Positions 8,444-64,000 of a stretch of 64,000 nt of DNA are shown here, piece after piece. The DNA is taken from positions 19,096,001 to 19,160,000 of the forward strand of contig NC_086380.1 in the NCBI RefSeq assembly GCF_036588685.1. Direction: 5' to 3'. The position numbers and the translations under genes were made by a program. The notes under the pieces were generated by a model. That model did no database searches. It was not told the origin of the DNA and saw only the letters and a list, made by a program, of their open reading frames with translations. The DNA comes from Mytilus trossulus. Taxonomy: Eukaryota. Positions within the stretch are counted from its first letter, which is position 1. Every line of letters starts with the position of its first letter.

Positions 8444-8695
8444 TAGGGCCATAATAAATAATAGGTTTGTTTGCCCAAACGCTACCTACCCAGAAAAAAG
8501 CTGCCTACTCAAATTCTTTTATTGTCCTGATTTGAAGAAGTTTTTTTTAATCAAATAGGCATGAAGACTAATAAACATATGATACTTTAATTTCATTTTT
8601 TGAAGAAAAAAAAAAGAAAATGCCTTCCTACCTACCCACTGTCTCAACCTTTGGGTAGGGTTTGGGCAAACCAAAATATTTTTAAGTATGGCCTA
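8444..8695. mobile_element. Small inverted-repeat element (Crypton/MITE-like)
   Basis: TAGGGCCATA...TATGGCCTA ends with internal IR TTTGCCCAAAC/GTTTGGGCAAA. Confidence 0.45.
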
Positions 8696-9509: not shown

Positions 9510-9634
9510 CTAATGGAAAGCATACAACAGTAAGATTATAACACAAGTAGCTATCACACTCGCTAAAATTATTGTGTCTCTTCTTTTCCGTAAGTTTATT
9601 TTTTGCATTAATGTGTTAATGAGAGGAAACCGAT
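9510..9634 (-). CDS. GOSR1: Golgi SNAP receptor complex member 1 (GS28), exon 8 (C-terminal TM anchor)
   Basis: (N)RFPLINTLMQKINLRKRRDTIILASVIATCVIILLLYAFH*; AG acceptor at 9635-9636. Confidence 0.95.
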
Positions 9635-10399
9635 CTGAAATCTAGTTAAGGAACAAAACAGATAACCATAAATATAACTTATAAATAACGTATCAGATTT
9701 ATAAAATTGTAAGATAGTATTTAGTTGCATGCTACAGTTTTCAAATCAAACAAATTCTTCACATTGGTATCTAGTGGATGTTTGGCTTACAGGAAATCTC
9801 CTACTTCTTATTTTCATACTTATCTGTACATTTCTTTAAAATATACTTTTCATACAAACAATCCCGTTTAAATGTAAATTTATCTATTTGAAGTGGAACT
9901 CTGTCATATTTGTTGAAAGCTATACTCAATATTTCAATAAAGGCTTTCTTATTTATCTCCCTATTCCCATTGATTATTACTTCTGGAAATTGAGGTTTGT
10001 ACTCAAATTTTGATCATGGAAAACTGATAACAATATTTATTTAAACTATATGCAAGCCCCATATATATTAATGATTATTAAAAATTTTGCATACAAATCT
10101 GCAGGCCAGACATATGAAAGCCTTGATTTGGTTAACAGCTTCACGAAAATATCTAATGTGAAGACTAAGTTATTTTTAATTGTATACCCTGTAAGCAGCC
10201 TTGGTGATAAACTCAGCATACACATACCTTTGTTCTCCTAAACTAAAGTACTCTTGCAACCACAAGGTCAAGGCTATTTTTGTCTAAATTTTGGGAACCT
10301 TATATTGGATTATAGAAATTTTACAGGCCTGAGTAGGTAGGCCTGCTGTCAAGCAAATATAATTATGTATTCATCTTGTTAATGTTTTAAAAAGGATAC
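9635..10399 (-). other. GOSR1: U12-type (minor spliceosome) GT-AG intron of GOSR1
   Basis: Donor GTATCCTTTT; branch point TTCCTTAAC (9645-9653) about 10 nt before the AG; no long polypyrimidine tract. Confidence 0.9.
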
Positions 10400-10482
10400 T
10401 CGCTAATGAATTCATTTTCTGTGTGATTGTTCCAAGAACTTTTCTCTGTGATTGTAAATTTTCTTTTGTTGCAATTGCTATA
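10400..10482 (-). CDS. GOSR1: GOSR1 exon 7
   Basis: IAIATKENLQSQRKVLGTITQKMNSLA; phases match the flanking exons. Confidence 0.93.
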
Positions 10483-11121
10483 CTGTGAAATAGAAATGAA
10501 AATATATAAAACATTGACAAACAGAACATAGAATTAAATAAGAAACACAAAGAGGACTCTTTTTACTAAAATGAATGTGGGAGGCAAGGAAAGATTTCCT
10601 TATTTCTAAACATTGGTTATGCAAACTTTATTTATACATATTTGACGTATGCAAAATTACTTAAAAAAAGGTATGTTGGTTTGGGGGTATTCAAGGAATC
10701 TTTGTACCCACTCTCATATCTGTTAATGGAATAGTCCAGATAATTTTTTATAACAATATGATCAAATGCAACAATCTTTTAAAGTTGAAATTTATTTTTT
10801 TTGGTGTTCCAACTGACATGTCTAATGAAGTTGTTTTTTGTTTTCCTTTTCTTCCTATTTGTCATTTTGACTGCAGGTCCCTTCACTGCTGATCATTTAT
10901 ATATGGACAGGTTTATCTTTTTGGTGTAGAGCACAAGTGAGTTTGTTTATTTAAATTCATTTTCAACTTTTAGACTAGAGATGATCTAGAGCTTAAATGT
11001 GTATGTTGGTAACACGTGTATTTGTGTAGTTGTTTCACCGACAGATATATGTATAGATTTTATCATACTTTTTTTTATAAAATTTCAATCTGTTTCATCA
11101 AGCTTTTTTATATATGCTTAC

Positions 11122-11151
11122 CTTATTTGGTCATCTATCATTTTTTCTGAA
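11122..11151 (-). CDS. GOSR1: GOSR1 exon 6 (30-nt microexon)
   Basis: SEKMIDDQI; AG/GTAAGC boundaries; keeps the reading frame. Confidence 0.88.
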
Positions 11152-11262
11152 CTGAAATAGAAAAAAAACAGTTGTATCATTTCCAATATAAGAGGAGTGA
11201 AGATATATATAATAAGGGCAAAATAAAAACTTAAAATCAATCTAAAAGTAAACATTAATATG

Positions 11263-11672
11263 ACAAACAAGAATGTTTCCATAGTACATGGATGCCCCAC
11301 TTGTACTATCATTTATATGTTCATTGGACCATGAAATTGGGGCCAAAACTCTAGTTTTGCATTAAAATTTGAAAGATTATATCATGTGTACTAAAAAGTA
11401 AAATCACAAAAATACTGAAAACAGAGGAAAAGTCCATAATCACATGGCAAAATCAAATGACAAAACACATCAAAAACGAATGGTCAAGAATTTTAATATT
11501 CCTGACTTGGTACAGGCATTTTCAATTGTAGAAAAGTTTCAAGTTGATTTAACTTCAACTTCATCAAAAACTACTTTGACCAAAAATTGGACGGACAGAC
11601 AATAAACAGATGAATGAATGGACGCACAGACCAGTTAACGTAATGTCCCTCTTCTGTTGTAGGTGGAGCGTA
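11263..11672 (+). mobile_element. Degenerate HINE-like repeat with a nested fragment
   Basis: ACAAGAATGT...GGATGCCCCACT start, GACG/GACA microsatellite, hairpin-like end; reverse complement of 51652-52080. Confidence 0.5.
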
Positions 11673-12079
11673 AAAATACAGCAACCACAAAACTCTACAC
11701 AGAAATAAAACATGAACCATACCAAAAGCTTTAGGTAATCTCAGGTATTTATGATAAAATGACAAAATCTAAAAACGTGAAATAATGAAATAATGAAAAG
11801 TCAATATGCAGAAAGTTTGGAGTTTTGATAGTGGTAATCAATATGTCACATTTGATCATTAAAATACTAGAATCTGAGAATTTACAAAATGCATCCAAAA
11901 ATAGAATTTTTCTATTGTTTGCAAGAACATTTTAAATTTTAATTTGGAATTACCAATGTATTGAGTAAGAGGTAGCATCACCTAAGTTGGGTCTTTGTAA
12001 AATAAGAGCTTCAGTGAGCTAACACCAAATAGTTCTTATTTTCTTTATGTATCAGAAATTACCAGATAAGTTCATTTAC

Positions 12080-12151
12080 CTCCGTATGTGATCATGTTCT
12101 TTTAAATACATATCTGTTCTTCTATTCAAACCAGAGGAATTTTTATAAGCA
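12080..12151 (-). CDS. GOSR1: GOSR1 exon 5
   Basis: AYKNSSGLNRRTDMYLKEHDHIR; AG/GTAAAT. Confidence 0.93.
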
Positions 12152-12790
12152 CTGAAAATAAAGCAAATATGAAGTATAGTCTAAACATGTTAAAATAGAT
12201 CTCTTATCATTTCTTTACACGTCTATAATGTTAAAATAATCATTCGAAATAAATTTCTTCACAGAAACAGTACAATCAATCCTCACATATAACTACTTGA
12301 TTTCCCTTTTTTTGTAACATTCATTGACCAGATGCTTCATGATACTATAGCTAAAATAGGAACAACCCAGTTCAAAATTTAGCATCAATGGCTTGAAAAT
12401 TACTAATTTGCTTTGCCTATAACTCTTACAGTGTTCATTTTTGCCTAGTGTTTAACATTAAAAAGACATTAATTTTCTGATCCAGGGCCTTTAATAGCTG
12501 ACTATAGGACATTGGCTTTGCTCAATGTTGAAGGCCATACAGTGACCTTTAGATGTTAGTTCTGTATCATTTTGTCTCACTTGGAGAGTTGTCTCATTAG
12601 CAATCATACAACATTTTCTTTTTTATATAAGAAAATATATTTCCAGCCAAATATTAAAATTCCCAAGCAAACAAGACAATCAAGCTAGTTTTAATTCTTT
12701 GGATATTAATATATATCATGTTTCAATTATCCCCAAAGATCTGATATATAAATTTAAAACAAACCCTCTATATACATTGTCCATGTATTA

Positions 12791-15535
12791 TATAACAAAC
12801 CTAATATCTCGTCTGACAGAGCCTAACAAATCTTCTCTTTCCCTTATTGCTGATATATTAGCCTTAGTTTTATGGAACTCATGTGATTTAAAACAAACCT
12901 AATATCTCATCTGACAGAGCCTAACAAATCTTCTCTTTCCCTTATTGCTGATATATTAGCCTTAGTTTTATGAAACTCATGCGATTTAAAACAAACCTAA
13001 TATCTCGTCTGACAGAGCCTAACAAATCTTCTCTTTCCCTTATTGCTGATATATTAGCCTTAGTTTTATGAAACTCATGCGATTTAAAACAAACCTAATA
13101 TCTCGTCTGACAGAGCCTAACAAATCTTCTCTTTCCCTTATTGCTGATATATTAGCCTTAGTTTTATGGAACTCATGTGATTTAAAACAAACCTAATATC
13201 TCATCTGACAGAGCCTAACAAATCTTCTCTTTCCCTTATTGCTGATATATTAGCCTTAGTTTTATGAAACTCATGCGATTTAAAACAAACCTAATATCTC
13301 GTCTGACAGAGCCTAACAAATCTTCTCTTTCCCTTATTGCTGATATGTTAGCCTTAGTTTTATGAAACTCATGCTATTTAAAACAAACCTAATATCTCGT
13401 CTGACAGAGCCTAACAAATCTTCTCTTTCCCTTATTGCTGATATGTTAGCCTTAGTTTTATGAAACTCATGCGATTTAAAACAAACCTAATATCTCGTCT
13501 GACAGAGCCTAACAAATCTTCTCTTTCCCTTATTGCTGATATGTTAGCCTTAGTTTTATGAAACTCATGCGATTTAAAACAAACCTAATATCTCGTCTGA
13601 CAGAGCCTAACAAATCTTCTCTTTCCCTTATTGCTGATATGTTAGCCTTAGTTTTATGAAACTCATGCGATTTAAAACAAACCTAATATCTCGTCTGACA
13701 GAGCCTAACAAATCTTCTCTTTCCCTTATTGCTGATATGTTAGCCTTAGTTTTATGGAACTCATGTGAGTTATAACAAACCTAATATCTCGTCTGACAGA
13801 GCCTAACAAATCTTCTCTTTCCCTTATTGCTGATATATTAGCCTTAGTTTTATGGAACTCATGTGAGTTATAACAAACCTAATATCTCGTCTGACAGAGC
13901 CTAACAAATCTTCTCTTTCCCTTATTGCTGATATATTAGCCTTAGTTTTATGGAACTCATGTGAGTTATAACAAACCTAATATCTCGTCTGACAGAGCCT
14001 AACAAATCTTCTCTTTCCCTTATTGCTGATATATTAGCCTTAGTTTTATGGAACTCATGTGAGTTATAACAAACCTAATATCTCGTCTGACAGAGCCTAA
14101 CAAATCTTCTCTTTCCCTTATTGCTGATATATTAGCCTTAGTTTTATGGAACTCATGTGAGTTATAACAAACCTAATATCTCGTCTGACAGAGCCTAACA
14201 AATCTTCTCTTTCCCTTATTGCTGATATATTAGCCTTAGTTTTATGGAACTCATGTGAGTTATAACAAACCTAATATCTCGTCTGACAGAGCCTAACAAA
14301 TCTTCTCTTTCCCTTATTGCTGATATATTAGCCTTAGTTTTATGAAACTCATGCGATTTAAAACAAACCTAATATCTCGTCTGACAGAGCCTAACAAATC
14401 TTCTCTTTCCCTTATTGCTGATATATTAGCCTTAGTTTTATGAAACTCATGCGATTTAAAACAAACCTAATATCTCGTCTGACAGAGCCTAACAAATCTT
14501 CTCTTTCCCTTATTGCTGATATGTTAGCCTTAGTTTTATGAAACTCATGCGATTTAAAACAAACCTAATATCTCGTCTGACAGAGCCTAACAAATCTTCT
14601 CTTTCCCTTATTGCTGATATATTAGCCTTAGTTTTATGAAACTCATGCGATTTAAAACAAACCTAATATCTCGTCTGACAGAGCCTAACAAATCTTCTCT
14701 TTCCCTTATTGCTGATATGTTAGCCTTAGTTTTATGAAACTCGTGCGATTTAAAACAAACCTAATATCTCGTCTGACAGAGCCTAACAAATCTTCTCTTT
14801 CCCTTATTGCTGATATATTAGCCTTAGTTTTATGAAACTCATGCGATTTAAAACAAACCTAATATCTCGTCTGACAGAGCCTAACAAATCTTCTCTTTCC
14901 CTTATTGCTGATATATTAGCCTTAGTTTTATGAAACTCATGCGATTTAAAACAAACCTAATATCTCGTCTGACAGAGCCTAACAAATCTTCTCTTTCCCT
15001 TATTGCTGATATATTAGCCTTAGTTTTATGAAACTCATGCAATTTAAAACAAACCTAATATCTCGTCTGACAGAGCCTAACAAATCTTCTCTTTCCCTTA
15101 TTGCTGATATATTAGCCTTAGTTTTATGGAACTCATGAGAGTTATAACAAACCTAATATCTCGTCTGACAGAGCCTAACAAATCTTCTCTTTCCCTTATT
15201 GCTGATATATTAGCCTTAGTTTTATGGAACTCATGAGAGTTATAACAAACCTAATATCTCGTCTGACAGAGCCTAACAAATCTTCTCTTTCCCTTATTGC
15301 TGATATATTAGCCTTAGTTTTATGGAACTCATGAGAGTTATAACAAACCTAATATCTCGTCTGACAGAGCCTAACAAATCTTCTCTTTCCCTTATTGCTG
15401 ATATATTAGCCTTAGTTTTATGGAACTCATGAGAGTTATATCAAACCTAATATCTCGTCTGACAGAGCCTAACAAATCTTCTCTTTCCCTTATTGCTGAT
15501 ATGTTAGCCTTAGTTTTATGGAACTCATGAGAGTA
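12791..15535. repeat. 98-bp tandem array, 28 copies, derived from the 3' end of GOSR1 exon 4 plus its donor site
   Basis: Exact period of 98 (12801 + 27x98 = 15447); each unit encodes HEFHKTKANISAIREREDLLGSVRRDI followed by GTTTG. Confidence 0.97.
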
Positions 15536-15646
15536 ATCCTGTAGGATATCTCTGTGTCTCTGTAAAGTATGGAGTAGAGCAGCACTAGGGGAACTCATAC
15601 TGATATTCTGTGTGTAGTCAGACATTCTATCATTCACATCTTGTAA
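15447..15646 (-). CDS. GOSR1: GOSR1 exon 4
   Basis: LQDVNDRMSDY...LHTLQRHRDILQDYSHEFHKTKANI...RRDI; 200 nt; AG/GTTTGA. Confidence 0.93.
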
Positions 15647-15929
15647 CTGAAAAACAAAATTACTATTATAAATTTAAGAAGATGCCATATGATTGCCAAT
15701 GAGACAACTCTCCACCAGAGAACAAATGACAATTGTGACAATTATGTGCTACCCTATGGATTCAACAATGAGCAAAACAGCTATAAAAGATCTTCAATGA
15801 TGTTATTGTTTTTCTATTGTTTGGAATGTGCTTAAATAATGTGAAGCAGGATTCCTTCCAAATCCAGAGCACCTTAGATCTACTACAGATTTTGGTGGTT
15901 GCACATTCTTTAGCTTTCTATGTGTTAAT

Positions 15930-16375
15930 TAGTATACTGTTTGTCTCTATTTGATTGTTTTACATTTTTGATTGTAAGTATACTGTTTGTCTTATTTGAT
16001 TGTTTTACATTTTTGATTGTAAGTATACTGTTTGTCTTATTTGATTGTTTTACATTTTTGATTGTTAGTATACTGTTTGTCTTATTTGATTGTTTTACAT
16101 TTTTGATTGTCAGTTTACTGTTTGTCTTATTTGATAGTTTTACATTTTTTATTGTCAGTTTACTGTTTGTCTTATTTGATTGTTTTACATTTTTTATTGT
16201 CAGTTTACTGTTTGTCTTATTTGATTGTTTTACATTTTTTATTGTTAGTTTACTGTTTGTCTTATTTGATTGTTTTACATTTTTTATTGTCAGTTTACTG
16301 TTTGTCTTATTTGATTGTTTTACATTTTTGATTGTTAGTATACTGTTTGTCTTTATTTGATTGTTTTACATTTTT
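15930..16375. repeat. 45-bp minisatellite, about 10 copies, in GOSR1 intron 3
   Basis: Unit AGT(A/T)TACTGTTTGTCTTATTTGATTGTTTTACATTTTT(G/T)ATTGT(A/T/C). Confidence 0.92.
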
Positions 16376-16905: not shown

Positions 16906-17256
16906 ACTTACCTTTGATAACAGCTGTTCAATCTCCATGGCCATTGTATCAAACATGTGCTCACTACTAAGATTTATTAATAAGGGGAGATAACTACTCA
17001 CCTTTGATAACAGCTGTTCAATCTCCATAGCCATTGTATCAAACATGTGCTCACTACTAGATTTATTAATAAGGGGAGATAACTACTCACCTTTGATAAC
17101 AGCTGTTCAATCTCCATGGCCATTGTATCAAACATGTGCTCACTACTAGATTTATTAATAAGGGGAGATAACTACTCACCTTTGATAACAGCTGTTCAAT
17201 CTCCATGGCCATTGTATCAAACATGTGCTCACTACTAGATTTATTAATAAGGGGAG
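16906..17256. repeat. 89-bp tandem array, 4 copies, derived from GOSR1 exon 3 plus its donor site
   Basis: Exon-end copies at 17180, 17091, 17002 and 16912; donors GTGAGT x3 and GTAAGT. Confidence 0.95.
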
Positions 17257-25184: not shown

Positions 25185-25496
25185 GACATATCTTGCACTC
25201 AATGGCCGGCAATGTTGTCTAAATTTTTTTGTCAGTGACAAAAAAAAAAAAAAGAGTCACTGAGGCCAGGGCTGGACTACGTGCATATGTTATCCCGTAA
25301 AAAATGTTGTGCAAAAACTTAAGGATTTTGCATAAATATAGTTATTACATATTGTTGATATAAAGATAGAGTGCTTGTTTTCTCAAACACTTCGAATTCA
25401 ACACGGTCGTCCGCGTAAAGCATTCTCGATCATACAAAAATACCCCCCAAAATCGGGACCATTTGCCAAAATTATAAATTAATATTTAAGAGGCTG
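25185..25496 (+). repeat. Left copy of the 312-bp direct repeat flanking the LINE (putative long TSD)
   Basis: Identical to 30588-30904 apart from A-run length (14 vs 19). Confidence 0.95.
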
Positions 25497-25858
25497 GTTT
25501 TATATCACGTGATTAGAAAGAAAATGAAGTGTTGTTACTCTCTCAACAAAAATATGGATTTCGGTTAGTTATACAGGAGATTTTGGAGTAAGATTTCAAC
25601 AACTGTAAATATTATACTTTTTGAACTTATTGTCTAAATTTCGGAGATCTTGAACCCATATTAGAAGTTTTTGATAACAACGAAACTATTATTTTCACTG
25701 AGACCTGTCCTGTATACCCTGGGGGATAAACAGTGTATATATTGAAAACTGTTCATTAAACATTGAATGAAAGTGGACTTTGGACTATAGTAAAATCAGC
25801 TGTTTTATAGTAAATTTGACCTATTCACCTATAAGGACAACCAATCATATCAAAAAGA

Positions 25859-26875
25859 ATGTCGATGAGCGATACGTCGAGGTTGATTAAAGAGAGCCGA
25901 AGAATAGTTGACGCTTCCAATGATGTAAATCTGAACTCCGGCACATTGCTTAACATGATTTTGGAAATAGTTACGGGTATCGACTCTACAATGAGACGAA
26001 TGGAAACAAGTATGGAGAAGCGCCTTGATGATTTGAAACAAGATTTCTTAACGGTGTCAGCTAGGGTTAGAACATTAGAAAACCAGGCGAGCGATTTCAA
26101 CAAAAAGCTGTCAGACTGCGAGACTAGCTGCCAAGGTGTTAGCAATCTTTTCGATCAGGTATCTGGACAAGTAAAAACTAACAGACGTAATATAAACAAT
26201 CATGATACGAGAATTAAGAAACTTGAAGACAACACCATCGTCCGACCGGGTGTTCCATCAGTCATCAATTCAAAGGAAATTGAGTCCTTAAAGTCAGCCA
26301 TTCTTGACTTGCAATGCAGGTCAATGAAAAACAATCTGATCTTTACGGGATTGCATAGAGTTCCGGGTGAAGATACGGAAGAGCTTTTGCGATCATTTCT
26401 ATACGATGAGCTGAGGATCGACTACAGGATCGAATTCGGCAATGTCCATCGATTCCGAACAAAGGGGGACAACAGAAGAGCACCGATAGTTGCAAGATTC
26501 CTATATCACCGTGATCTTGAATATGTTTTAGCAAATGCTACCAGACTAAAAGGTAGACCATACGGAATACGGGAGCAATTTCCTCATGAAATTGAACAAA
26601 AGCGGAAGGAACTGTATCCGGTATTAAAACAGGCCAAACAGCAAAATAGACAAGCCTCTCTTGTGCGTGATAGGCTATACATAGACAACCAGCTCTACAT
26701 TCCTAACACGGTACTAGAGGACACTAGAACGGAGCATACTGGCTCTTCATCAACAAACCATGACACGAGCCCAAAAGGTTCTTATTCTAGTGATACCCCT
26801 CCTAGCAAAAGACAGCGACAGGGACCGTCTCCTGGCCCACCGCACACAGATGATTCACCAAATTCTGGCAGATAG
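25859..26875 (+). CDS. LINE ORF1 (coiled coil plus L1-like RRM/CTD)
   Basis: 338 aa; DLQCRSMKNNLIFTG, VHRF, PIVARF, IREQFP motifs. Confidence 0.9.
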   Translation: MSMSDTSRLIKESRRIVDASNDVNLNSGTLLNMILEIVTGIDSTMRRMETSMEKRLDDLKQDFLTVSARVRTLENQASDFNKKLSDCETSCQGVSNLFDQVSGQVKTNRRNINNHDTRIKKLEDNTIVRPGVPSVINSKEIESLKSAILDLQCRSMKNNLIFTGLHRVPGEDTEELLRSFLYDELRIDYRIEFGNVHRFRTKGDNRRAPIVARFLYHRDLEYVLANATRLKGRPYGIREQFPHEIEQKRKELYPVLKQAKQQNRQASLVRDRLYIDNQLYIPNTVLEDTRTEHTGSSSTNHDTSPKGSYSSDTPPSKRQRQGPSPGPPHTDDSPNSGR

Positions 26876-26879
26876 GGGA

Positions 26880-29800
26880 ATGGTGCAAGAGGACAACCTC
26901 AAAAGAAATCGAAAAATTATAAATATTTGTTTCTTAAATGTTTGTGGACTTAAGAAAAGACTATTGTCTCCCGATTTCATTGACATTTTGCTTGAACATG
27001 ATATCTGTATTTTTGTTGAAACGATGTTAACTGATTTAGATAATTTAAACTTACCAGACGATTATATTTATGTCACAAAAAATAGAAAAAAATTTAAAAA
27101 AGCATCAGGTGGAATAGTTGTTATTTATAGAAAGAGTTTAGAAAAAGAGTTGAATTTCTATAATACTGAGAGTCAATTTGTTTTATGGTTTAAACTTTCG
27201 AAATCAATTTTGTCACTTAATTCAGATGTAATTTTTGGTTGTGTTTATGTACCACCTGAAAACTCTAAGTATTCTACTATAGAAGCTTTTGAAGAATTGG
27301 AAAATGAATTGAATATCCTTACAAACACTGAAAATTTTTATATTGCCCTAGTTGGCGATTTTAACTCAAAAACTGGGTCTTTACCCGATTATATTATACC
27401 TGATGAGTCAGTTGTTAGTATGTTTGATTTAGATTGTGATGCTGATATATTAGATTATTTGTATGATTATGAGAATCTGACTCGAAACAAAATCACCTTA
27501 CAAAGAGTGTCTCAGTGTACATGTCGACCTAATAGGTATGGTCATAGACTGTTAGAGTTGTGCAGAAAAAATAATTTATATATTGCAAATTCAAGAGTTG
27601 GATCAGATAAAGATATTGGGGAGAAAACATGTAACGATTCAAGTGTTGTTGATTATTTAATTATTTCATCAATGCTCTTCCCTTTGATTGTTTATTTTGA
27701 AATTGCTGACTTCATACCGTTATATTCTGATTGTCATTCTTTTATAAATTTTAGACTTCAGGCCACATTTAGTAAATCAGATTCAATTGTTATCAACAAT
27801 AGAAATGATAAAACTTTTGTCAGGTGGAAAAGTGAACAGAAATCTGAATACGTTGATCGAATTCACAATGATCCCAAAGGTATTTTGACCACTGTTATGA
27901 ATAAACTGGACAAATTGTCCGTAAATAATGATGCAACTCAAAATGATATAAACAATATAGTTTTAGATATCAGCAAAAATTTTAAAGATGCGGCAGCAGA
28001 AACGTTTGGGAAAGTAAATAAACATAAACATTTTTACAAACATGAAAATTCAAAACCTTGGTTTAATAGAAAATGCTCGATGAGTAGAAACAAATTTCAT
28101 AAAGCTCGAAAGAGATATAGTTTTTTGAAAAATGCTGAAAACAGAAGTAAAATGAGACAAGCTAGTAAAGAACATAAAGTAACATTAAATAAATCTTTTG
28201 CAAACTATCAACAGAGAGCTGCTGATGAGTTGCGTAACATCTCTAAAAAGGATACAAAAGCTCTATGGAAAATCCTTAATAATCTAAATGATAGTAAAAA
28301 AAAAGATAACAATGACGATATATCTCTAAAAGCATTGTATGATCATTTTAAAATATTAAATGAAACTGTTGAGACAGAAAATGATTTCGAACAAGATTTG
28401 GAATTTGATACTCTACCAGACGATGTTGAGTTATTTTTAAACTGTCCAGTAACAGAAGATGAAATTAAAAAAGTTGTTTCAAACTTAAAAAATGGCAAAG
28501 CTTCAGGTAGTGATGAAATTTTAAATGAGTATATAAAGAATACAATTGACGATTTAATGCCAATTTATGTTAAGCTATTCAATTTGATTTTAGATACTGG
28601 AATTGTTCCAGACAGTTGGTCTAATGGAATCATGATTACTATATTTAAAAATAAAGGATCAAGATCTGATCCCGAAATGTACAGAGGAATCACTTTGAAT
28701 TCATGCTTTAGTAAAACTTTTTCTGCCATGTTGAATTACAGGTTAAATAATTATGCAGATCACGTAGACCTGATTTCAAAGGCACAAGCAGGTTTTCGTA
28801 GAGGATTCTCTACTGTTGACAATATATTTGTATTGTATTCTTTAATTACTATATATTTTTCATTTGGTAAGAAGCTATTTTGCACTTTTATAGACTTTAA
28901 AAGCGCTTTTGACACTGTATGGAGGTCAGGATTGTGGCAAAAAATGCAAAAATCAAACATTAAAGGTAAATTATTTAATGTGATCTATAATATGTATCAA
29001 AATATAAAAACATGTGTCAAGAAAGGAAATGAATTTTCCGAATTTTTTATATCTCATACAGGAGTAAAACAAGGTGAAAATCTATCACCTTTTTTATTTT
29101 CTTTGTTTCTAAATGATTTAGAAAGTTATTTTGTGGAAAATAATATAGAAAGTCTAACTAATATTTCAAAGCTGTGCTTGGAATCATTAGAAATGTATGT
29201 TAAATTGTTTATTATACTGTACGCAGATGATACTGCGCTATTGTCTGAAAGTGCAGAAGGATTACAAAAAACCCTTGTATGTTTTGAAGAATATTGTAAA
29301 AAATGGAAGCTTAAGATTAACACAAGCAAAACCAAAGCAGTGATTTTTAGTAAAAGGAAAGTAAAAAGAAATCAGAATTTTATGATATATGGTGAAAAAA
29401 TTGAAATAGTTGATTCCTACTGCTACCTTGGTGTACTTTTCAATTACAACGGTAGCTTTTGTACAGCACGAAAAAGACTTCTTGTTCAAGCACAGAAGTC
29501 TTTGTATGCTCTATACCGAAAAATAAAAAATATATGTATTCCCGTCGATTTGCAGCTAAAACTTTTTGACTCATTGGTTAGTCCTGTTTTATTATATGCT
29601 TCAGAGGTATGGGGATTTGAAAATAAAGAAAGCATTGAGAAAATACACCTTCAATTTTGCAAAAACATTTTGAAATTAAGAAGCAGTACACCAAATTATA
29701 TGGTGTATGGGGAACTCGGAAGATTCCCTTTGGAAACCATTATTAAACGTAAAATGGTGTTGTTTTGGAATAACTTGGTATCGGAAAATAACAAGTTATC

Positions 29801-30395
29801 TTCCATTATGTATAAATTAATGCTCAAATTACATTTTCAAAACCCCACAAAATTTAAATGGATTACGTACGTTAAATCCATATTTGATGAAAATGGAATT
29901 AGTTTTATTTGGCAAAATCAACTTCCATTGGATAAACTGGGATTAAAGAACATTATTTCACAAAAACTGAATGATCAATTCATCCAACATTGGTTTTCAC
30001 AAATGAATAACTCTTCAAGAGGTGCATTTTATTCATTTTATAAAGAGGAATTTCGTTTGGAAACCTATTTGATAAAGTTGAAGCTGTGTGACAGGATTTA
30101 TATGGCAAAACTCAGATGTTCAAATTTAAAAATTCCTGTAGAAACGGGAAGATGGTCCGGAATTCCAAAAAATGCACGAATTTGTCATCTTTGTGGAAAT
30201 GGAATAGGGGATGAATTTCATTATCTTTTTAAATGTCAAAAACAGGAAATAAAACTGCTTAGAAATAAATATATTCCACAATATTATACTGCAAATCCAA
30301 CGGAGTACAAATTGAAACAGCTTTTAACATTTTGTCATGTAGAACTTTACAAAAACTTAGCAATATTTTTAAAAATTCTTACACGATACTTGTGA
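26880..30395 (+). CDS. LINE ORF2: AP endonuclease, reverse transcriptase and C-terminal Zn-knuckle (ORF is open from 26760)
   Basis: NVCGL, VET, GDFN, VDY, SDCH; QAGFR, DFKSAFD, QGENLSP, YADD; ETGRW...CHLC...DEFHYLFKC. Confidence 0.95.
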   Translation: MVQEDNLKRNRKIINICFLNVCGLKKRLLSPDFIDILLEHDICIFVETMLTDLDNLNLPDDYIYVTKNRKKFKKASGGIVVIYRKSLEKELNFYNTESQFVLWFKLSKSILSLNSDVIFGCVYVPPENSKYSTIEAFEELENELNILTNTENFYIALVGDFNSKTGSLPDYIIPDESVVSMFDLDCDADILDYLYDYENLTRNKITLQRVSQCTCRPNRYGHRLLELCRKNNLYIANSRVGSDKDIGEKTCNDSSVVDYLIISSMLFPLIVYFEIADFIPLYSDCHSFINFRLQATFSKSDSIVINNRNDKTFVRWKSEQKSEYVDRIHNDPKGILTTVMNKLDKLSVNNDATQNDINNIVLDISKNFKDAAAETFGKVNKHKHFYKHENSKPWFNRKCSMSRNKFHKARKRYSFLKNAENRSKMRQASKEHKVTLNKSFANYQQRAADELRNISKKDTKALWKILNNLNDSKKKDNNDDISLKALYDHFKILNETVETENDFEQDLEFDTLPDDVELFLNCPVTEDEIKKVVSNLKNGKASGSDEILNEYIKNTIDDLMPIYVKLFNLILDTGIVPDSWSNGIMITIFKNKGSRSDPEMYRGITLNSCFSKTFSAMLNYRLNNYADHVDLISKAQAGFRRGFSTVDNIFVLYSLITIYFSFGKKLFCTFIDFKSAFDTVWRSGLWQKMQKSNIKGKLFNVIYNMYQNIKTCVKKGNEFSEFFISHTGVKQGENLSPFLFSLFLNDLESYFVENNIESLTNISKLCLESLEMYVKLFIILYADDTALLSESAEGLQKTLVCFEEYCKKWKLKINTSKTKAVIFSKRKVKRNQNFMIYGEKIEIVDSYCYLGVLFNYNGSFCTARKRLLVQAQKSLYALYRKIKNICIPVDLQLKLFDSLVSPVLLYASEVWGFENKESIEKIHLQFCKNILKLRSSTPNYMVYGELGRFPLETIIKRKMVLFWNNLVSENNKLSSIMYKLMLKLHFQNPTKFKWITYVKSIFDENGISFIWQNQLPLDKLGLKNIISQKLNDQFIQHWFSQMNNSSRGAFYSFYKEEFRLETYLIKLKLCDRIYMAKLRCSNLKIPVETGRWSGIPKNARICHLCGNGIGDEFHYLFKCQKQEIKLLRNKYIPQYYTANPTEYKLKQLLTFCHVELYKNLAIFLKILTRYL

Positions 30396-30587: not shown

Positions 30588-30904
30588 GACATATCTTGCA
30601 CTCAATGGCCGGCAATGTTGTCTAAATTTTTTTGTCAGTGACAAAAAAAAAAAAAAAAAAAGAGTCACTGAGGCCAGGGCTGGACTACGTGCATATGTTA
30701 TCCCGTAAAAAATGTTGTGCAAAAACTTAAGGATTTTGCATAAATATAGTTATTACATATTGTTGATATAAAGATAGAGTGCTTGTTTTCTCAAACACTT
30801 CGAATTCAACACGGTCGTCCGCGTAAAGCATTCTCGATCATACAAAAATACCCCCCAAAATCGGGACCATTTGCCAAAATTATAAATTAATATTTAAGAG
30901 GCTG
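30588..30904 (+). repeat. Right copy of the direct repeat flanking the LINE
   Basis: Starts immediately after the microsatellite tail. Confidence 0.95.
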
Positions 30905-41340: not shown

Positions 41341-41614
41341 TTTTATCAAAAGGAGGAAGAGCGTTAAAGAAAAATAGACATAAAGTAGAGCAAAATCAGG
41401 GCAAGGAATCAGAGCTCTGCATGAGTGAAACATGTTCTTTAATTTTAAATAATTTCCAAAATTTTGTAACAGCAAACTTAAATAACACAAAATCCGTATT
41501 GTCATGCTAGTTCCGAAGTACTGGCTACTGGGCTTGTGATACCCTCGACTCCATCAAGTACTTAAAACAAAATATCTTTGCGCAAATCGAAAATCTTATT
41601 AATTAAAGACATAC

Positions 41615-41724
41615 CACATATTATTTGAAGGATGTAGAACATCATACCAAAAATACTATTTGGTTGATTTAGTACACTTGTTTTTCCGACGATGTACTCC
41701 AATAATCCAAAACCTTTTCCGTAC
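41615..41724 (-). CDS. VKORC1: VKORC1 exon 2
   Basis: [33 protein letters not shown]; 110 nt; AG/GTATGT. Confidence 0.95.
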
Positions 41725-42316
41725 CTGAAGATAATAAACAAAAATTCAATCCTCAACATTTTACCGCACATCTTGATAATATAAATAATGGTGTAAACAC
41801 TATTTTTAATTAATTTATATCTTTATATTTTATAGTTGAAAAAAATCAACTGACTATGTTCTCGTACTGCGTGGATATACATTTAAAATGTGTTCGAAGT
41901 TTATATACAGTCAGTCCATCGTCATCATCATTTTAAGATAACCAAGATGCGTAATATTTCGTGAATGTGTGACAAAGTTTCATCTGTAAAAAAAACTTAA
42001 ACCACAGACTTAGCCTAAATTTGACGATACGGTGCCATCGACTAAGTTGACAAGGCGAATTCAAAATACCGGTAAAGTTTGATCTAATTTCAGATTGGAA
42101 TGAAACAATGAGGCATGAACTCAGAAACAAAATATCGATTGTAGTATTCATATTAAACAAGTATCATGATTGCATCACACATCAGTTTTTAAATGACTCC
42201 TGATTAAACGAAATGTTAAAGCAGTGTCTGCATAAGGTTTTGTGACAATGATTTCGGAAATTATAATATAAACCTAGGTAATTGACACTTAGTTCTAGAT
42301 CAGTAGACAAATGTAA

Positions 42317-42555
42317 ATCGGTGGTCTCGTAGTCGTCAGTTCGAACACTGGCCGAGTCAAACCAAATACTGTACAGTTTGTTTTGCTGCTACTCCAGTAA
42401 GCAGAAGGCAAACTAAGGAGTAAGAGCAAAGACTGGTCGTCTCTGAGTCAGAATAATGTGTCCGGGTAGGGTGACATGTCTTCTTGTGGACTGTTTCTTT
42501 GTTAACTAGCACGTTAAAAATTCAACACAGCATGTCAATCTAATACTAAGCAGTA
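42317..42555 (+). mobile_element. Degenerate molluscan tRNA-SINE
   Basis: B-box-like GTTCGAAC followed by GGAGTAAGAGCAAAGACTGG...ATAATGTGTCCG core. Confidence 0.5.
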
Positions 42556-43567
42556 TATATATATATTCATATCGCACTAGCATAGCATTATCCTCAATCT
42601 GAATTCAGTTTGCCAGTAGACGTTAAATAGCCAACCAGCCATCTATCCATCCACAGAAGAAATTCAGTTTGCCAGTAGATGTTTAATAGCCAACCACCCA
42701 TGGCCATCTATCCATCCACAGAAGAATCCTTCTTAGAATACAACTGTCTGTTTACAAAAATATAACAGATACATCTGGTTAGGCCAAAAAAAATTAATAC
42801 ATGTGTTTCAGCTAAACCTACCCTTAGCCTAGTTTTTAGTGCCTACCCTAACACTTTTTATGTCATTTTGGAACAAGCACTGGATAAAGACAAACTGATT
42901 CCCTTGTAGTAACCAGCTAAAAAATGTGTGTTAAATAAAACGATATTGCCTACCTACCTATCCTCAACAACAAAAAATCAGCACATTAGTTGAAACACAT
43001 ATTTAAGTGACATTCTTAATAAAAAAAATATATTTTTTTATAGTAACAAACTCCATAAAAATATGATGTTCAAGTGAACATGTGGCTACTTCCTTTTTAA
43101 ACACCTAACTTCGTTCTCAAGCTTTTCATGATATTCATTTTAATGCTTCCTACCGTAAAATCAATCTTGTACATATTTGAATTTTGTGAAAAAAAATTAA
43201 TTACCATGTATATTTTCATACACTTACAGTTGTATAGATACTTATTATTATTGTAAGACATTTTTTTTCATAATTATTTTAATAAAGTTACAAATTGTCA
43301 GAGAAGACAAAACAATGAAGTCTAAAAGAAATATAAAACGTTTGTTACTAGATAAAAAATTACAACAATTATAATTGTAAATATTTGAAAAAATAAAATT
43401 AAAGGTGACTTTTGCCATTGTGTCACGACATTTACCATAACAATGGAACTTTAAAAGTACTGAACAGGCTTTTATTTCTACATTTCAATAGTACATGTAT
43501 GCGGCAACCCTCAGAACTTTGTTAAAGGAAACGATAAATGATCATATAACAAATTCGATAATTCTTT

Positions 43568-44049
43568 TGTAACCGGAGAGCACTAATTTCATTACAAAAT
43601 TGCTTGGATCCACCGGGACTCGAACCCGGGACCTCTGTATTACAAGGCAGCGCGCTAACCGACTGAGCTAAAGAAGTACTTCCTTAGCTCAAACGCTTAC
43701 GGCTGACTAAGTATCTACTAAGTTTCTAAGGGAAGCAACCCCGTCACACTTCCCCCACCTCAAGCGTCATTATACTCTATAATGATGATATTTTCATCTT
43801 TTTTATATTTATATTTTAACCTGGCTAGGTAATTCTTCTAACCGTGGGTTATTCTTGTTGGGCGCCAATGTAACCGGAGAGCACTAATTTCATTACAAAA
43901 TTGCTTGGATCCACCGGGACTCGAACCCGGGACCTCTGTATTACAAGGCAGCGCGCTAACCGACTGAGCTAAAGAAGTACTTCCTTAGCTCAAACGCTTA
44001 CGGCTGACTAAGTATCTACTAAGTTTCTAAGGGAAGCAACCCCGTCACA
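43568..44049 (-). mobile_element. TRIM (miniature non-autonomous LTR element) with tRNA-containing LTRs
   Basis: Two identical 181-bp TG...CA LTRs (43568-43748, 43869-44049); 120-bp interior with PBS TGGCGCCCAAC and PPT AGGTGGGGGAAG; 4-bp TSD CTTT. Confidence 0.93.
43605..43677 (-). other. tRNA-Thr(TGT)-like sequence inside the 3' LTR (second copy at 43906-43978)
   Basis: TAGCTCAGTCGGTTAG A box, CTTGTAA loop, perfect T-arm CCGGG-TTCGAGT-CCCGG; imperfect anticodon and acceptor stems. Confidence 0.75.
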
Positions 44050-44340
44050 CTTTTATCATTTCACTGAAGTGTATTAGACCACTGTTTCCCTGCAATAAAT
44101 AACCTTTGAAAATGATATACTCGCGATGAACGGTTTATTGGTGAATTTAGAGTTATTCCCCTTCAATATAGCCAAGAATTTAAAAAAGACGTTCTTTTAC
44201 CAGGAAACGACTTTAAAATTATACCAAACTAGGAAATACATAGTTTGAGACCAGTATTGTAAAATAGAAGGAATTTTTTTGTATATACTTTGTAATCTAT
44301 TCAATATTTGTAAAACTTATAAACGCTGACGTGTACTTAC

Positions 44341-44534
44341 TTTGATGTAAACACTTTAGAACAGCTCATTTTAGGATTTATGTCACACCATGCTTTAAAA
44401 CTTGAGTCTCCCTCTGCGTGAATTTCAACATAAAGTGCGTACACGGACAATAGCATTCCAACTGTGCAGAATATAAGCAAGACATTGCCAAATAAACGTG
44501 CAGATTTACGTAGCTGAGTTGCTTCGTTTGCCAT
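44341..44534 (-). CDS. VKORC1: VKORC1 exon 1
   Basis: GMLLSVYALYVE...AWCDINPKMSCSKVFTSK; total CDS 531 nt = 176 aa. Confidence 0.95.
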
Positions 44535-44833
44535 TGTTTATATTGACGCTTATGTCAATGAAAACATTATTTTTTATAATCAAACAACATTTACATATAA
44601 TAGCTATATTAATAAATATGAATTAATTCACTTTAATCTGAACCTTTAAAAAATCTAAAAGATAGTTTTTATGTTGAATATAAATGCTTTTTATCTGGCT
44701 TATTTGCAATGATAAAATCGATCTACACAAAGGTCAATAAATATCACGTGTGACGTCCTACATTTTGACTTTTTTTGTCGACCTTACAAATAGTCTAAAC
44801 ATTTCCTCCGTTGTGTCAGAGCTTGTGTTAATC
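44535..44833. promoter_or_regulatory. Putative bidirectional promoter, VKORC1/GST-theta
   Basis: 299 bp between divergent ATGs; adjacent TCACGTG and TGACGTC motifs at about 44744-44757. Confidence 0.6.
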
Positions 44834-47390: not shown

Positions 47391-48284
47391 TTAAATGCCC
47401 TCAATATTAATAGTTTTATAGTAGGGCGAACAGACTCTATGGGCGAACGAACTCGACCGAACGGACCTAAGGCGAACGGTCCCGATACCTCCGTGTACTA
47501 TGAACACATTCTTTCGATCTATATATATATTTTTCCCAATATTTAGTAGATTTTTCTTTCTGGAAATGGTTGACATACACTGATACGAACCACACAAAGT
47601 AAATGTTTTACTAATTATAGTTTTATTTTACCGTATTTGTTAGACTATAAATATCTATTTCAATCACTAACATCAGAAGCTATCAAGAAAACAAGAAAAT
47701 ACCGGAAATTTGAACCATCTTTAACAGAAAGTACTGAAACATACATAGTAGACTTGCGTGCATTGACAAACTTTCTTATCCTTTGATGAGGAATAAAAAA
47801 TGACCAATCAATCTATTATTTCAGAAATTGACCATTTTAGTAGAACTAATGTATGAAAAGTTGGCCCTACCTCTTTGACTGATATTAAACATATCTGTCC
47901 AAGTATATACAAAATTGATTCATATTAACATTTATTCGTTTCAATTGACATTAAGTTGCGTCCAGGATTTGATTGACCACTTTCAGCTCTATTGGCATCT
48001 GCATGGCGGCCAGTTTGTATTGGGAGCGTGAGTGTCCTTCGTTATAAAAACTGACAACCCTTGTTACTTTAGATTGAAGTTCTAACTAATATTAATTTTA
48101 TAAAAAAAAAACAGGACGGGCATAATGGTTTTATTAGGTTAAGATTCTTGAAACTTTTTAATATATATTTGATATATGGTTTCGGAGAAGTTGCTGATAC
48201 AAAAATGAAACTTAAACAAACATTTGGGGAGGTTATTATTCTACCTTTTCATACTGAGGAATAATGAAAACTTGAATTTTTCAG

Positions 48285-48438
48285 TGTTGCCATTTTGAAA
48301 TATTTGGTAGCAAAGTATAACTTACCAGAGCACTGGTATCCTAGAACGAACTTACAAGCCCAAGCAAGAGTAGACGAATATATGAACTGGCAACATTGGA
48401 ATACCAGGCTGAAGTCAGCATATCTCTTCAGGAATCTG
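48285..48438 (+). CDS. GSTT1: GST theta exon 3
   Basis: VAILKYLVAKYNLPEHWYP...ARVDEYMNWQHWNTR; 154 nt. Confidence 0.95.
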
Positions 48439-49516
48439 GTAATTTTCTTAATTTTTGGATACATATTTATCTAATTTGATGAGTTCGAAAACTTTAAAAT
48501 ATCCTTCACCAGAAAACAGACAGAAGGATGCGAAATCAAAAGATTAGTAATTTTTTTTATATTGAGGTCACTATATGGTTTTCAATAATCCATCTGTGTC
48601 TATACCATATGTCATCTCCCGAGTAAGTACATGTTTTATTAAAGACACTACTACTATTGCAGTCGTCTTCTTCATCTGCCCTACGATGACTGTATGAATT
48701 ATTAATCTCGTTAGTAGTGGTCGATTACGGGAAGTATGCGGTTGAGACACTATGATCAGAGAATTTCCACCAATTTCCGTAACAAGACTACCAAGTGTAG
48801 CCACTGACGAGGTTTCATACTTGGAAAAAAAGTAGAAAATTAAACTTCAAGACAAATTCAGAAATAAATATTTCAAGCTACATGTAGTAGTATAATTATC
48901 TGTATTTTGGACAATAAAAACAACAAAAAACATTCCTAAAACACTCAAGAATGCTGACAATTACCGATAGCAAGCGCCAAACACCTAGATTGGTTTATAT
49001 GTAGAAATCTTGCTCGCCTACACTCTAAAATCGACCTCTCTATTGTCGTGTAGATTTTATACAATCCACAGATATTAAAGGAAAACCTCAAAATTACAAA
49101 AATGCAATGCGTTTGCAAGAAGAGTATACTTTTATGTTATAGGGGGAGGGTTGATATCTCACAAAACATGTTTAACGCCTCAGCATTTTTGCACCTGTCT
49201 CAAGTCAGGAGCCTCTTGCCTTGGTTGGTCTTGGTTTTTTTTAAATTTTAAATCATTTATATGTTTGGTGTGATGTCCTATTTCATTTAACTAGTACATA
49301 TTTTGTTAAGAGTCTAGCTGAAGGCTGTGTTGCTGACCCATTGGTGGTCTGCTCGTTGGTCGGGTTGTTGTTAATTTAATTCATTCCCCATTTCCATTCT
49401 CAATATGATGTAACACATATGTGTTACTTCCAGTAGTGCTGATATGATCAAATCGCCGTTTCAGAATATAAGTAAACAAAAGAACATATAAATGATGACT
49501 GAACTTATCTTTCCAG

Positions 49517-49861
49517 TTGATTGAACCAAAAGCTTTGAGTAGACCAGTTGATTGGGATAAAGTAGAACAATTTAGAACAGAAGTAAGGAAAACTGTAAAA
49601 TTCTTAGAAAATGTTTGGCTGAAAGATCAACCTTTCCTTTGCGGACAAGAAATTTCTGTAGCTGATATCCTTGGAATCTGTGAATTAATACAGCTGTATG
49701 CTGTCAATGAAGAGTATTTGTATGAAGAGAATTCTGTAGTCAAAGCATGGATGGATCGAGTTAAAGAGAGGCTACAGCCTCACTTTGACGAAGCTCACAA
49801 ACTGACATACAGGACACGTGAAATGTACCCAATGATCAAAGAGCAACTAGCCAAACTGTAA
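49517..49861 (+). CDS. GSTT1: GST theta exon 4 (last)
   Basis: FLCGQEISVADILGICEL...WMDRVK; total CDS 699 nt = 232 aa. Confidence 0.95.
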   Translation: MIEPKALSRPVDWDKVEQFRTEVRKTVKFLENVWLKDQPFLCGQEISVADILGICELIQLYAVNEEYLYEENSVVKAWMDRVKERLQPHFDEAHKLTYRTREMYPMIKEQLAKL

Positions 49862-61631: not shown

Positions 61632-63423
61632 CTTTTGTACTGAGCATGGTACGGTCTTCCATTCGTTCTTTTGTATAATAGTATATTTGGTGCATGAAGA
61701 TTTTATTAAATAAAAAGACTTGTTTTATTGAATTGTTCTTTACAGTTTTTATGAGCATGTATTTTGTAAGAATAGTATCTATATATTTTGATAACTTAAG
61801 CTGTATTTTATGCAAAGAAATACTGTGACAGCCTCCTTCAATGATTACTTGTGACAAACGGCGAACAACAAAGTCCTAGAAAACTATCATCTTCTGTCTA
61901 ATTCAATAATACTATAGAACTCAGATGCAATAAAATCTAAAGCAATAATTTGAAAATATATTGTGTCACTCATTTTCCATGGTTTTGTTTTCTGATAATA
62001 GACTATGTTTCATGCAGCTATATTTACAATTATTAATATTGTTTACACTCAATAACTTTTTCATCTTTCTTAAACATTAAAAGGTGTCTGTCTAAGTTTC
62101 ATATCATTCAATTAAGGTTTGGAAGATTAAAAAGGTTAGAGGTTCCTGACTTGAGACATGCACAAACATGCGGTTATGTTATACATGTTTTGTGTGGTCT
62201 CAATCGTTGTTCCCCTATAAATCTAGCCAATGTGGAATAAACAGACGTACAACAATGCGCACAGTAAACCTCAGTTTGAAAGTAAGAAAAGGTACTAAGA
62301 GAAACTAATAAAAACGACAATGATCAACATAGATTAAAAAAGAACTACTAACAGTTATTGTGCTATGGTAAATTTTTATATCTTTGTCTTTCATGTTTGC
62401 TAATAAGTTTTGTCTAGAAGCATTTTGGATTTTCACTTTAATTTCTAACATTTGTACCTATATTGTTTGTTTTGTCCACACATCAGTATCAATATAATGG
62501 AATTTTATTCGACTGTCATAAAAGTGAGAGGTTAGGCTAAATATAAAGCCAGGTTTAATCCACCATTTTCTACTTAAGTCAGAAATATGACAGTTAATAT
62601 CTATTCTTTTAATGTGTTTGAGCTTTTAATTTTGCTATTTGAACAGGGACTTTTGATTTTGGATTGTCCACGGAGTCTGGTATTTTTGTTATTTTACTTT
62701 TTGCTTATTATCAGATATACCAGCTTTAGACCCCATGTGTGTCTTAAGTGTCTTGTGTGACGTATTAAATTTTCTGACGTCAGACACTCTAATCAATGAA
62801 TGTGTTTGTAGATAGATGTTTTTGTGTTCTGTTAAATTGTTCCTTTTAAAATTGTTACACGAGGATGACTGCTGTACCCATATTTTGACTATTTTATTTA
62901 TTGTGTCTATTTAGATAACGCATCATCGTAAATATAACGGAATTTGATGAGACTGTTATCAAAGTGAGAGGGTTAGCGCTATACAACCAGGTTTAACCCA
63001 CCATTTTCTACATTTAAAAATGCCTGTACCAAGTCAGGAATATGTCATTATTTGTCCATTCGTTTTTGATGCGTTTTGTTATTTGATTTTGCCATGTGAT
63101 TATGGACTTTTCGAATTGATTTTTCTGTAAGTTCAGTATTTTTGTGATTTTACTTTTCATTCATTGAACATCTACACCGTTTACATTCTGTTTTTTTCTA
63201 ATGACGAAAGACGATATGGTTATTCTGTTGTTGTCCCTTTGGTCATATATCTCCTATTTTAAATATCAAGTAGCGCTTCGGACGCACTCAATGTATTAAG
63301 GGTGACGAAAGCATTTCATTTATTCATTAAGTAACACATTTTATCGTTCCTATCTTATATATTGAAAACTATGACAAACTCATAACTATAAAAGTATACA
63401 TCAGACTCGGACTTCTCTTGAAT

Positions 63424-63795
63424 TGAATTTTAAATATACGTATTGTTATGCGTTTACTTTTCTACATTGGCTAGAGGTATAGGGGGAGGGTTGAGATCTC
63501 ATAAACATGTTTAACACCGCCGCATTTTTGCGCCTGTCCCAAGTGAGGAGCCTCTGGTCTTTGTTAGTCTTGTATTATTTAAATTTTAGTTTCTTGTGTA
63601 CTATTTGGAAATTAGTATGGCGTTCATTATCACTGAACTAGTATATATTTGTTTAGGGGCCATCTGAAGGACGCCTCCGGGTGCGGGAATTTCTCGTTAC
63701 ATTGAAGACCTGTTGGTGACCTTCTGCTGTTGTTTTTTCTATGGTCGGGTTGTTGTCTGTTTGATACATTCCCCATTTCCATTCTCAATTTTATT
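63424..63795 (+). repeat. Abundant interspersed repeat (copies at about 49130, 51300, 58885, 59590)
   Basis: AAACATGTTTAAC...CAGGAGCCTCTGG...CTGAAGGACGCCTCCGGGTGCGGG...CCCATTTCCATTCTCAATTT. Confidence 0.75.
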
Positions 63796-64000
63796 TGTAA
63801 AATAATATCATGAATAAGGGTGCATCTATTTTCCATATAGTCGGCAATATTTCTCATGCTCTTATGATGTTTTTTTTTGTCGTTTCATTTTTGATGTAAG
63901 TCAGTATTTATGCATCCCACTATCGGGTTTTGACATTGGACCTGTCTGGTAGAGGTGGTTTCCAGAGTGCAAACACGAAGGAAAAAAGTGTCTATAGTGT

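Follow-up and report, generated by a model that had tools for sequence, protein, structure and literature searches.

TRIMs that carry a tRNA-derived sequence in their LTRs have been described under the name Helenus (TRIMp3), the animal members of which have 4-bp target-site duplications (TSDs) (Kojima, 2024; PMC10886601). Box A of Helenus reads TRGCY..YGG and box B reads GGTTC. The Pol III function of Helenus has not been validated, with Pol III transcription reported for Cassandra only, and the partnership with Gypsy elements is Kojima's inference from primer sites and duplication length (PMC10886601). In that study, only Gypsy elements match the primer sites of bivalve Helenus. Its Fig. S2A also has a BEL entry whose primer-binding site (PBS) is of the tRNA-Lys type, and the PBS alone therefore does not single out Gypsy. 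How a gene-less element with LTRs unlike those of its helper is recognized and packaged is treated in the same study as an open question.

Here we describe an element of this kind from a 64-kb stretch of mussel DNA, hereafter the window. We consider it highly probable that the element is an intact and fairly young copy of Helenus-1/1B_MyGa in intron 1 of VKORC1, a non-autonomous TRIM that would be driven by Pol III and mobilized by a Gypsy-type partner, two steps that Kojima and we both infer. As a copy of a published family the element has little significance, beyond being a clean example that might serve as an insertion marker in a mussel VKORC1 intron. It also carries a hairpin over its A box, which we compare with other members of the group.

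Results

A complete TRIM in intron 1 of a VKORC1-like gene

The element occupies 482 bp on the minus strand, with two 181-nt LTRs that show zero differences from each other and an interior of 120 nt (Table 1), reproducing the coordinates and identity given in a preliminary description made from the sequence. Read on the minus strand, the LTR termini are TG...CA. The polypurine tract and 4-bp TSD that had been reported there were both located, with the purine tract abutting the 3′ LTR and a fifth flanking base differing between the two sides. The PBS, TGGCGCCCAAC, begins one base past the 5′ LTR and is unique within the window at up to one mismatch. It had been called a tRNA-Lys-type site, in agreement with Fig. 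S2C of PMC10886601, which puts Helenus-1_MyGa under tRNA-Lys-CTT. The A boxes (43971-43960 and 43670-43659) and B boxes (43927-43918 and 43626-43617) are on the same strand as the PBS. In the window's ORF list no reading frame of at least 100 aa overlaps the element, and no additional copy of it occurs inside the window.

Table 1. Positions of the element, its parts and the neighboring VKORC1-like exons within the window.
Feature	Position	Strand	Evidence
Whole TRIM, copy of Helenus-1/1B_MyGa	43568..44049	-	Repeat analysis and by-eye comparison with Data S1 of PMC10886601
5′ LTR, 181 nt, TG...CA	43869..44049	-	Repeat comparison
3′ LTR, 181 nt, identical to 5′ LTR	43568..43748	-	Repeat comparison
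Non-coding interior, 120 nt	43749..43868	-	117/120 as Helenus-1B_MyGa-I, by eye
PBS, 11 nt, tRNA-Lys-CTT type	43857..43867	-	Motif search; Fig. S2C of PMC10886601
Polypurine tract adjoining 3′ LTR	43749..43761	-	Sequence
TSD, left copy, 4 bp	43564..43567	.	Sequence
TSD, right copy, 4 bp	44050..44053	.	Sequence
tRNA-like stretch, 5′ LTR, no acceptor stem	43914..43971	-	Rfam, box search, fold
tRNA-like stretch, 3′ LTR	43613..43670	-	Rfam, box search
Hairpin core over A box, 5′ LTR, self-complementary centre	43965..43992 (extended 43957-44000)	-	Inverted-repeat search and folding
Hairpin core, 3′ LTR	43664..43691 (extended 43656-43699)	-	Inverted-repeat search and folding
TTTT run past B box, 5′ LTR: putative leaky terminator for Pol III	43897..43900	-	Sequence
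TTTT run past B box, 3′ LTR: putative genomic-RNA end	43596..43599	-	Sequence
VKORC1-like exon 1, start codon 44534	44341..44553	-	Pfam VKOR E 3.8e-10 (44534-44341); RNA contig X19 record 9
VKORC1-like intron 1, GT...AG	41725..44340	-	RNA contig and splice borders
VKORC1-like exon 2	41615..41724	-	RNA contig; weak Pfam VKOR match, E 0.017

Sequencing runs were compared with the window as contigs, using three DNA runs (X1, X2 and X6) and one RNA run (X19), four of the 24 listed. Six of the X1 contigs listed carry the flanks of the element with zero differences from the window, and X1 may be the sample from which the window derives. A single X19 contig (record 9) joins exons 1 and 2 of the VKORC1-like gene with 3 differences overall, which confirms the borders of intron 1 and the placement of the element given in the preliminary description; the joined frame of the two exons is stop-free. 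The element sits ~290 bases into the intron from the donor site and has the same orientation as VKORC1. Because the allele behind this contig may be one without the insertion, the contig does not imply splicing across an occupied site.

Several other features surround the insertion. A theta-like GST gene (44553-44780 onward, plus strand), based on X19 RNA contigs and GST_N and GST_C matches, starts head to head with VKORC1, ~220 bases from the VKORC1 5′ end, and the TRIM is ~500 bases from the shared VKORC1/GST promoter region. The window contains the 3′ portion of GST twice on the plus strand (47979-51607 and 57955-63802), and the last GST coding exon has the same translation at 49499 and 61260. 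Depth peaks and loose ends in X1, X2 and X6 mark three high-copy repeats in or beside VKORC1 intron 1 (41500-41613, 42412-42525 and 42754-42981), the first of which is extremely abundant. At 42899-43442, X1 also carries a second version of the intron sequence with 43 differences and 15 gap letters in 543 bases (record 5), which is probably a highly diverged second haplotype.

Elsewhere in the window, a LINE at 25835-30395 (plus strand) has two long open frames of 346 and 1225 aa, with an RVT_1 match at E 4e-34. It is flanked by direct repeats (25185-25496 and 30588-30904) that are ~315 bp long, 98% identical and not TG-initial, and that could be either a target duplication of unusual length or a duplication that arose when the LINE inserted. 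A BEL/Pao gag-protease region at 261-2454 (minus strand), with DUF1759 and DUF1758 in two overlapping frames, heads towards the window start. Tandem arrays are found at 12794-15529 (period 98, 28 copies, 98% matches), 15931-16375 (period 45), 16906-17256 (period 89) and 5270-6270 (period ~490).

The element belongs to a published Helenus family

A short-motif text search of the supplement of PMC10886601 led to Helenus-1_MyGa and Helenus-1B_MyGa from Mytilus galloprovincialis, which were compared with the element by eye using Data S1. Table S1 of that study gives their lengths as 491 and 484 bp, compared with 482 bp here, and lists 4-bp duplications for both. The LTR of the element agrees with Helenus-1_MyGa at 174 of 181 positions, with 7 substitutions and one 2-nt gap, and is further from Helenus-1B_MyGa (12 substitutions and a 1-nt gap). 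The interior agrees with Helenus-1B_MyGa at 117 of 120 positions (3 substitutions) and is further from Helenus-1_MyGa (6 substitutions and a 5-nt gap). In the published sequences the termini, PBS, polypurine tract, A and B boxes, hairpin, and 4-bp duplication are all as in the element. Helenus-1_MyCo from Mytilus coruscus and other Mytilida Helenus also have a closely similar LTR and share the tRNA-Lys PBS and hairpin, but the 102-nt interior of Helenus-1_MyCo is clearly more distant from the 120-nt interior found here, which suggests a host closer to M. galloprovincialis.

The DNA runs provide an additional comparison with the published sequences. The majority letters in X1, X2 and X6 are those of the published consensus at 43607-43608, 43639, 43693, 43739, 43765, 43854 and 43885. 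This majority corresponds to the published letter at 6 of the 7 LTR differences and, among the rows listed, at 2 or more of the 3 interior differences; at the seventh LTR difference it sides with the window and Helenus-1B_MyGa. Judged from the element by itself, the host is most likely a Mytilus species close to M. galloprovincialis. The published rule for a full-length copy is more than 90% identity to the consensus across more than 90% of its length (PMC10886601), and the by-eye alignment to Helenus-1/1B_MyGa, supported by the run majority letters, exceeds both values. The element is shorter than 1000 bp, non-coding, interspersed and multi-copy, with two LTRs, boxes A and B, a PBS, a polypurine tract and a 4-bp TSD, as expected of Helenus. 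The 5S rRNA-derived sequence that distinguishes Cassandra and Ajax was not found in the LTR, where an Rfam scan to E 1 gives the tRNA model alone. The name Helenus, which the preliminary description had given for tRNA-bearing analogues of Cassandra, is correct, and the element belongs to an already known family.

Copy number and a distant relative

A single-copy sequence, with no insertions elsewhere, had been named in the preliminary description as the finding that would speak against a mobile element. Instead, the family is highly repeated. Summed contig depth, which is not equivalent to copy number, is 5,075-16,046 in the four element bins of X1 and 41-65 in the flanking bins (42982-43551 and 44122-44691), with corresponding values of 553-2,582 and 3-8 in X2, and 1,522-6,308 and 5-25 in X6. 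The ratio of element to flank depth is thus ~100 or more in all three runs, and contigs exit the LTR ends into other flanks (X2 record 19, as well as three loose ends of X2 located at 43748), so the single-copy reading falls.

A metagenome scan with the hairpin motif gave 0 matches, and a scan with a degenerate motif for the junction of LTR and primer site gave 1 match, in L001. Across its interior and junctions the L001 copy is ~72% alike to the window copy. Its LTRs have decayed and are ~73% alike to each other in the main aligned block, and it has a 4-bp duplication of its own. This aged Helenus copy (1370-1815) resembles Helenus-1_BaPl by eye, and its 5′ LTR has suffered two deletions, one of which took out the upstream arm of the hairpin, with the 4-bp duplication retained.

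Age of the insertion

The insertion had been described as very recent from its identical LTRs. The identity stands, but with assumed rates of 2, 1 and 0.5 × 10^-8 per site per year, an LTR divergence of 0/181 is compatible at the 95% level with ages of up to 0.4, 0.8 and 1.7 million years, respectively, which weakens the qualifier "very". The copy in the window also bears letters that are rare in the family, alike in both LTRs, as well as in the interior. The X1 depth remaining for the window letter is 15/6,589 at 43908, 13/6,219 at 43765 and 38/2,913 at 43854. The shared rare letters are most simply explained if the donor of this copy had itself diverged. Among the 15 of 52 joints listed, none skips the element, and none of the listed contigs bridges the insertion site.

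The tRNA-like sequence and a proposed route of replication

The Rfam tRNA model scores 25.1 bits in each LTR, under its gathering score of 29, and covers model positions 8-63 of 71. The anticodon loop is TGT, the D stem has one mismatch, the anticodon stem is one base short and the acceptor stem is missing. Folded alone, the tRNA-like stretch does no better than shuffles (z 0.90), and ARAGORN calls zero tRNAs in the 64-kb window. A working tRNA-Thr(TGT) gene is rejected by these results, with model positions 1-7 and 64-71 absent from the Rfam match. The preliminary description had reported a tRNA-Thr(TGT)-like sequence with intact A and B boxes in the sense orientation; the boxes, their strand and the TGT loop are as described, but the threonine label holds for the anticodon loop alone and is thin because there is no acceptor stem. 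In L001 the anticodon loop differs from that of the window copy, and the MyGa families are missing from the list of possible tRNA genes in Fig. S1 of PMC10886601. Self-priming by the tRNA-like part was rejected as well, since the best match of the LTR to its own PBS covers 6 of 11 bases; the tRNA-like part of Helenus is likewise reported not to prime its own PBS (PMC10886601).

In the route of replication that we propose, the tRNA-like part would act as a promoter rather than as a working tRNA. The A and B boxes of the 5′ LTR would direct Pol III to initiate a short distance ahead of the A box, within or close to the hairpin. TTTT occurs on the sense strand only once per LTR, past the B box. 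To yield a full-length RNA, transcription would have to read through the run in the 5′ LTR, which it would do part of the time, and terminate at the run in the 3′ LTR. The resulting RNA would be ~390 nt long with ~85 nt repeated at both ends. A Gypsy-type helper could then package and copy this RNA, with host tRNA-Lys on the PBS priming the first strand, the purine tract providing the second primer and the helper integrase making the 4-bp duplication.

Other observations touch on this route. The TTTT run between the B box and the PBS could halt Pol III early. Scarcity of T runs on the sense strand was considered as a sign of Pol III use and rejected for lack of significance, with T runs equally scarce in 71% of 2,000 shuffles and in 102 of 284 windows of matched GC content. 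Pieces of the family occur in RNA run X19 together with other intron repeats, in contigs that are uninformative on transcript start, strand and level. The BEL/Pao remnant in the window was considered as a helper and set aside, with no second matching PBS found in the window, including in this remnant.

A hairpin overlaps the A box

The inverted repeat over the A box that had been noted in the preliminary description is real. Its core of 28 nt forms 12 pairs around a self-complementary centre, with calculated energies of -14.7 kcal/mol for a single strand and -45.4 kcal/mol for two strands. Extended to 44 nt, the hairpin dominates the predicted fold of the LTR and has a z of -5.48, with 0 of 200 shuffles folding as well. 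The L001 counterpart folds likewise with a different sequence (z -3.84, 0 of 200 shuffles).

By eye, 33 of the 51 published bivalve Helenus LTRs (PMC10886601) have an upstream arm that pairs with the region of the A box; the LTRs are consensus sequences from families that are kin, so the 33 families are not 33 independent cases. The 18 LTRs that lack the hairpin are those of CGi-2, 2B, 2C and 3; CVi-3 and 4; SaGl-1, 2, 4, 4B and 5; PiIm-2, 4 and 5; ArIr-1; PeMa-2; and TeGr-1 and 2, and include all 7 bivalve families listed as possible tRNA genes in Fig. S1 of that study. Within the Mytilida, the hairpin is present by eye in 11 of 11 families, with four different self-complementary centres found in 5, 3, 2 and 1 families. 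Most scallop families have a hairpin centre with an odd number of bases, which suits a hairpin better than a two-strand duplex, and in two families the centre is of the wobble type. By the same by-eye comparison, the hairpin is also present in 2 of 2 coelacanth and 3 of 3 nemertean Helenus LTRs and is missing in the three brachiopod LTRs. The LTRs of Ajax-1_LiLo and Ajax-1_NGe (Data S1 of PMC10886601), viewed by eye, apparently have a comparable hairpin together with a word resembling a tRNA-type A box, upstream of their 5S part, a resemblance that hints at derivation of Ajax from a hairpin-type Helenus.

The hairpin appears to be undescribed. The main text of PMC10886601, considered apart from its figures, makes no mention of a hairpin, palindrome, inverted repeat or dimer. 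A literature search, which covered publications rather than Repbase or Dfam entries, gave no later primary study on the Helenus hairpin, with citing papers mentioning the name only.

If Pol III starts within the hairpin, the 5′ end of the RNA would expose a free self-complementary stretch. This stretch could find a partner in another RNA molecule or in the upstream hairpin arm of the 3′ LTR, and the 3′ LTR would fold the whole hairpin. In a predicted fold of an RNA that begins 10 bases before the A box, the hairpin of the 3′ LTR forms (pair probabilities 0.72-0.97), and when the RNA begins 15 bases before the A box its 5′ end is predicted to pair with the upstream arm of the 3′ LTR. Both of these folds follow from the repeat itself and are therefore no proof of function.

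Discussion

Different accounts can be given of what the element is, how old it is and how its RNA is made. The presence of a tRNA-like stretch in each repeat could bring to mind a duplicated tRNA gene or a SINE dimer instead of an LTR element, but the TG...CA ends, the canonically placed PBS and polypurine tract and the 4-bp TSD, together with the lack of a poly(A) or simple-repeat tail, the lack of a tRNA gene call and the direct match to a published TRIM, refute this account, to which we assign practically no weight. That the copy is older than its LTRs suggest, with the two LTRs, 120 bases apart, homogenized by gene conversion or assembly polishing after divergence in place, seems unlikely to us. 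Such a history would fit the several sites, in both LTRs and in the interior, where the copy departs from the family majority, as well as the depth of the window letters in X1 (13, 15 and 38), which is near single-copy with no sister copies evident. However, a diverged donor and ordinary reverse transcription yield the same pattern, with a donor that may be absent from that individual, and this copy still has its termini, its two primer sites and its target duplication undamaged, whereas the two LTRs of the aged L001 copy are ~73% alike in the main aligned block. A slightly less probable alternative accepts the family assignment and has the copied RNA made by Pol II, from the LTR or by host read-through, for example of the VKORC1 intron, with the A and B boxes as passengers of an old SINE or tRNA insertion. 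The sense orientation of the element in a transcribed intron, the TTTT run after the B box in the 5′ LTR, and the lack of validation of Pol III use for any Helenus (PMC10886601) all suit this explanation. In contrast, the LTR has neither a TATA box nor AATAAA, with two TATA-like words confined to the interior, and comparison with the L001 LTRs shows the A-box and B-box blocks to be some of the best-conserved columns, unlike the stretch between them. The same conservation of the boxes across families is reported in PMC10886601. We prefer a fairly young Helenus-1/1B_MyGa copy that would be transcribed by Pol III.

Selection has probably acted on the hairpin as an RNA feature. The symmetry of the hairpin may reflect an RNA pairing signal, or merely an inverted repeat that corrects itself. 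Templated mutual correction of inverted repeats is established, and it is quite conceivable that the hairpin has no function, having arisen by a single inverted duplication of the A-box region with its symmetry kept by template-switch correction. The 18 of 51 bivalve families that lack the hairpin (by eye) and are still classed as Helenus, and the possible kinship of the families that have it, are consistent with this explanation. Against it, the arms hold mismatches and G-U type pairs in fixed places as the centre changes on both sides simultaneously, four self-complementary centres occur among the 11 Mytilida families (by eye), and the pairing extends to two coelacanth LTRs, three nemertean LTRs and L001 (z -3.84). 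A role as an RNA pairing signal is possible on this evidence, if doubtful. Our fuller proposal is offered tentatively: the hairpin would be a hitherto unreported cis-element under selection that distinguishes a single branch of animal Helenus, stands in for the acceptor stem of the tRNA, and acts as a dimer or end-to-end signal. If this proposal were true, the element would possess a signal akin to PAL1/PAL2 of Ty1, and the bivalve, nemertean and coelacanth elements would be linked by one origin or by horizontal transfer. With the hairpin at the likely start site and natural variants available across many families, it also offers a cheap way to test the question of packaging.

Among known systems, Cassandra TRIMs of plants resemble the element in being TRIMs with the Pol III promoter of a small-RNA gene in each LTR (PMC7215508; PMC10886601). 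Cassandra differs in its 5S rRNA promoter, PBS and plant hosts, with the promoter-like sequence here being tRNA-derived. The self-complementary LTRs of Cassandra are predicted to form a "super-hairpin" that involves the whole element (PMC7215508), in contrast to the short arm that pairs with the A box here. The bivalve element biv-TRIM occurs in M. galloprovincialis and also has inverted repeats, but it is a different element with repeats of 202-218 bp, no canonical PBS and its inverted repeats in the interior (PMC6934838). A functional analogy to the hairpin is provided by PAL1 and PAL2 of Ty1, self-complementary stretches near the 5′ end of the RNA that are needed for RNA dimers (PMC6844567). 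Ty1 is an autonomous, Pol II-transcribed element of yeast, and the analogy is one of function only, with no sequence relation to Helenus claimed.
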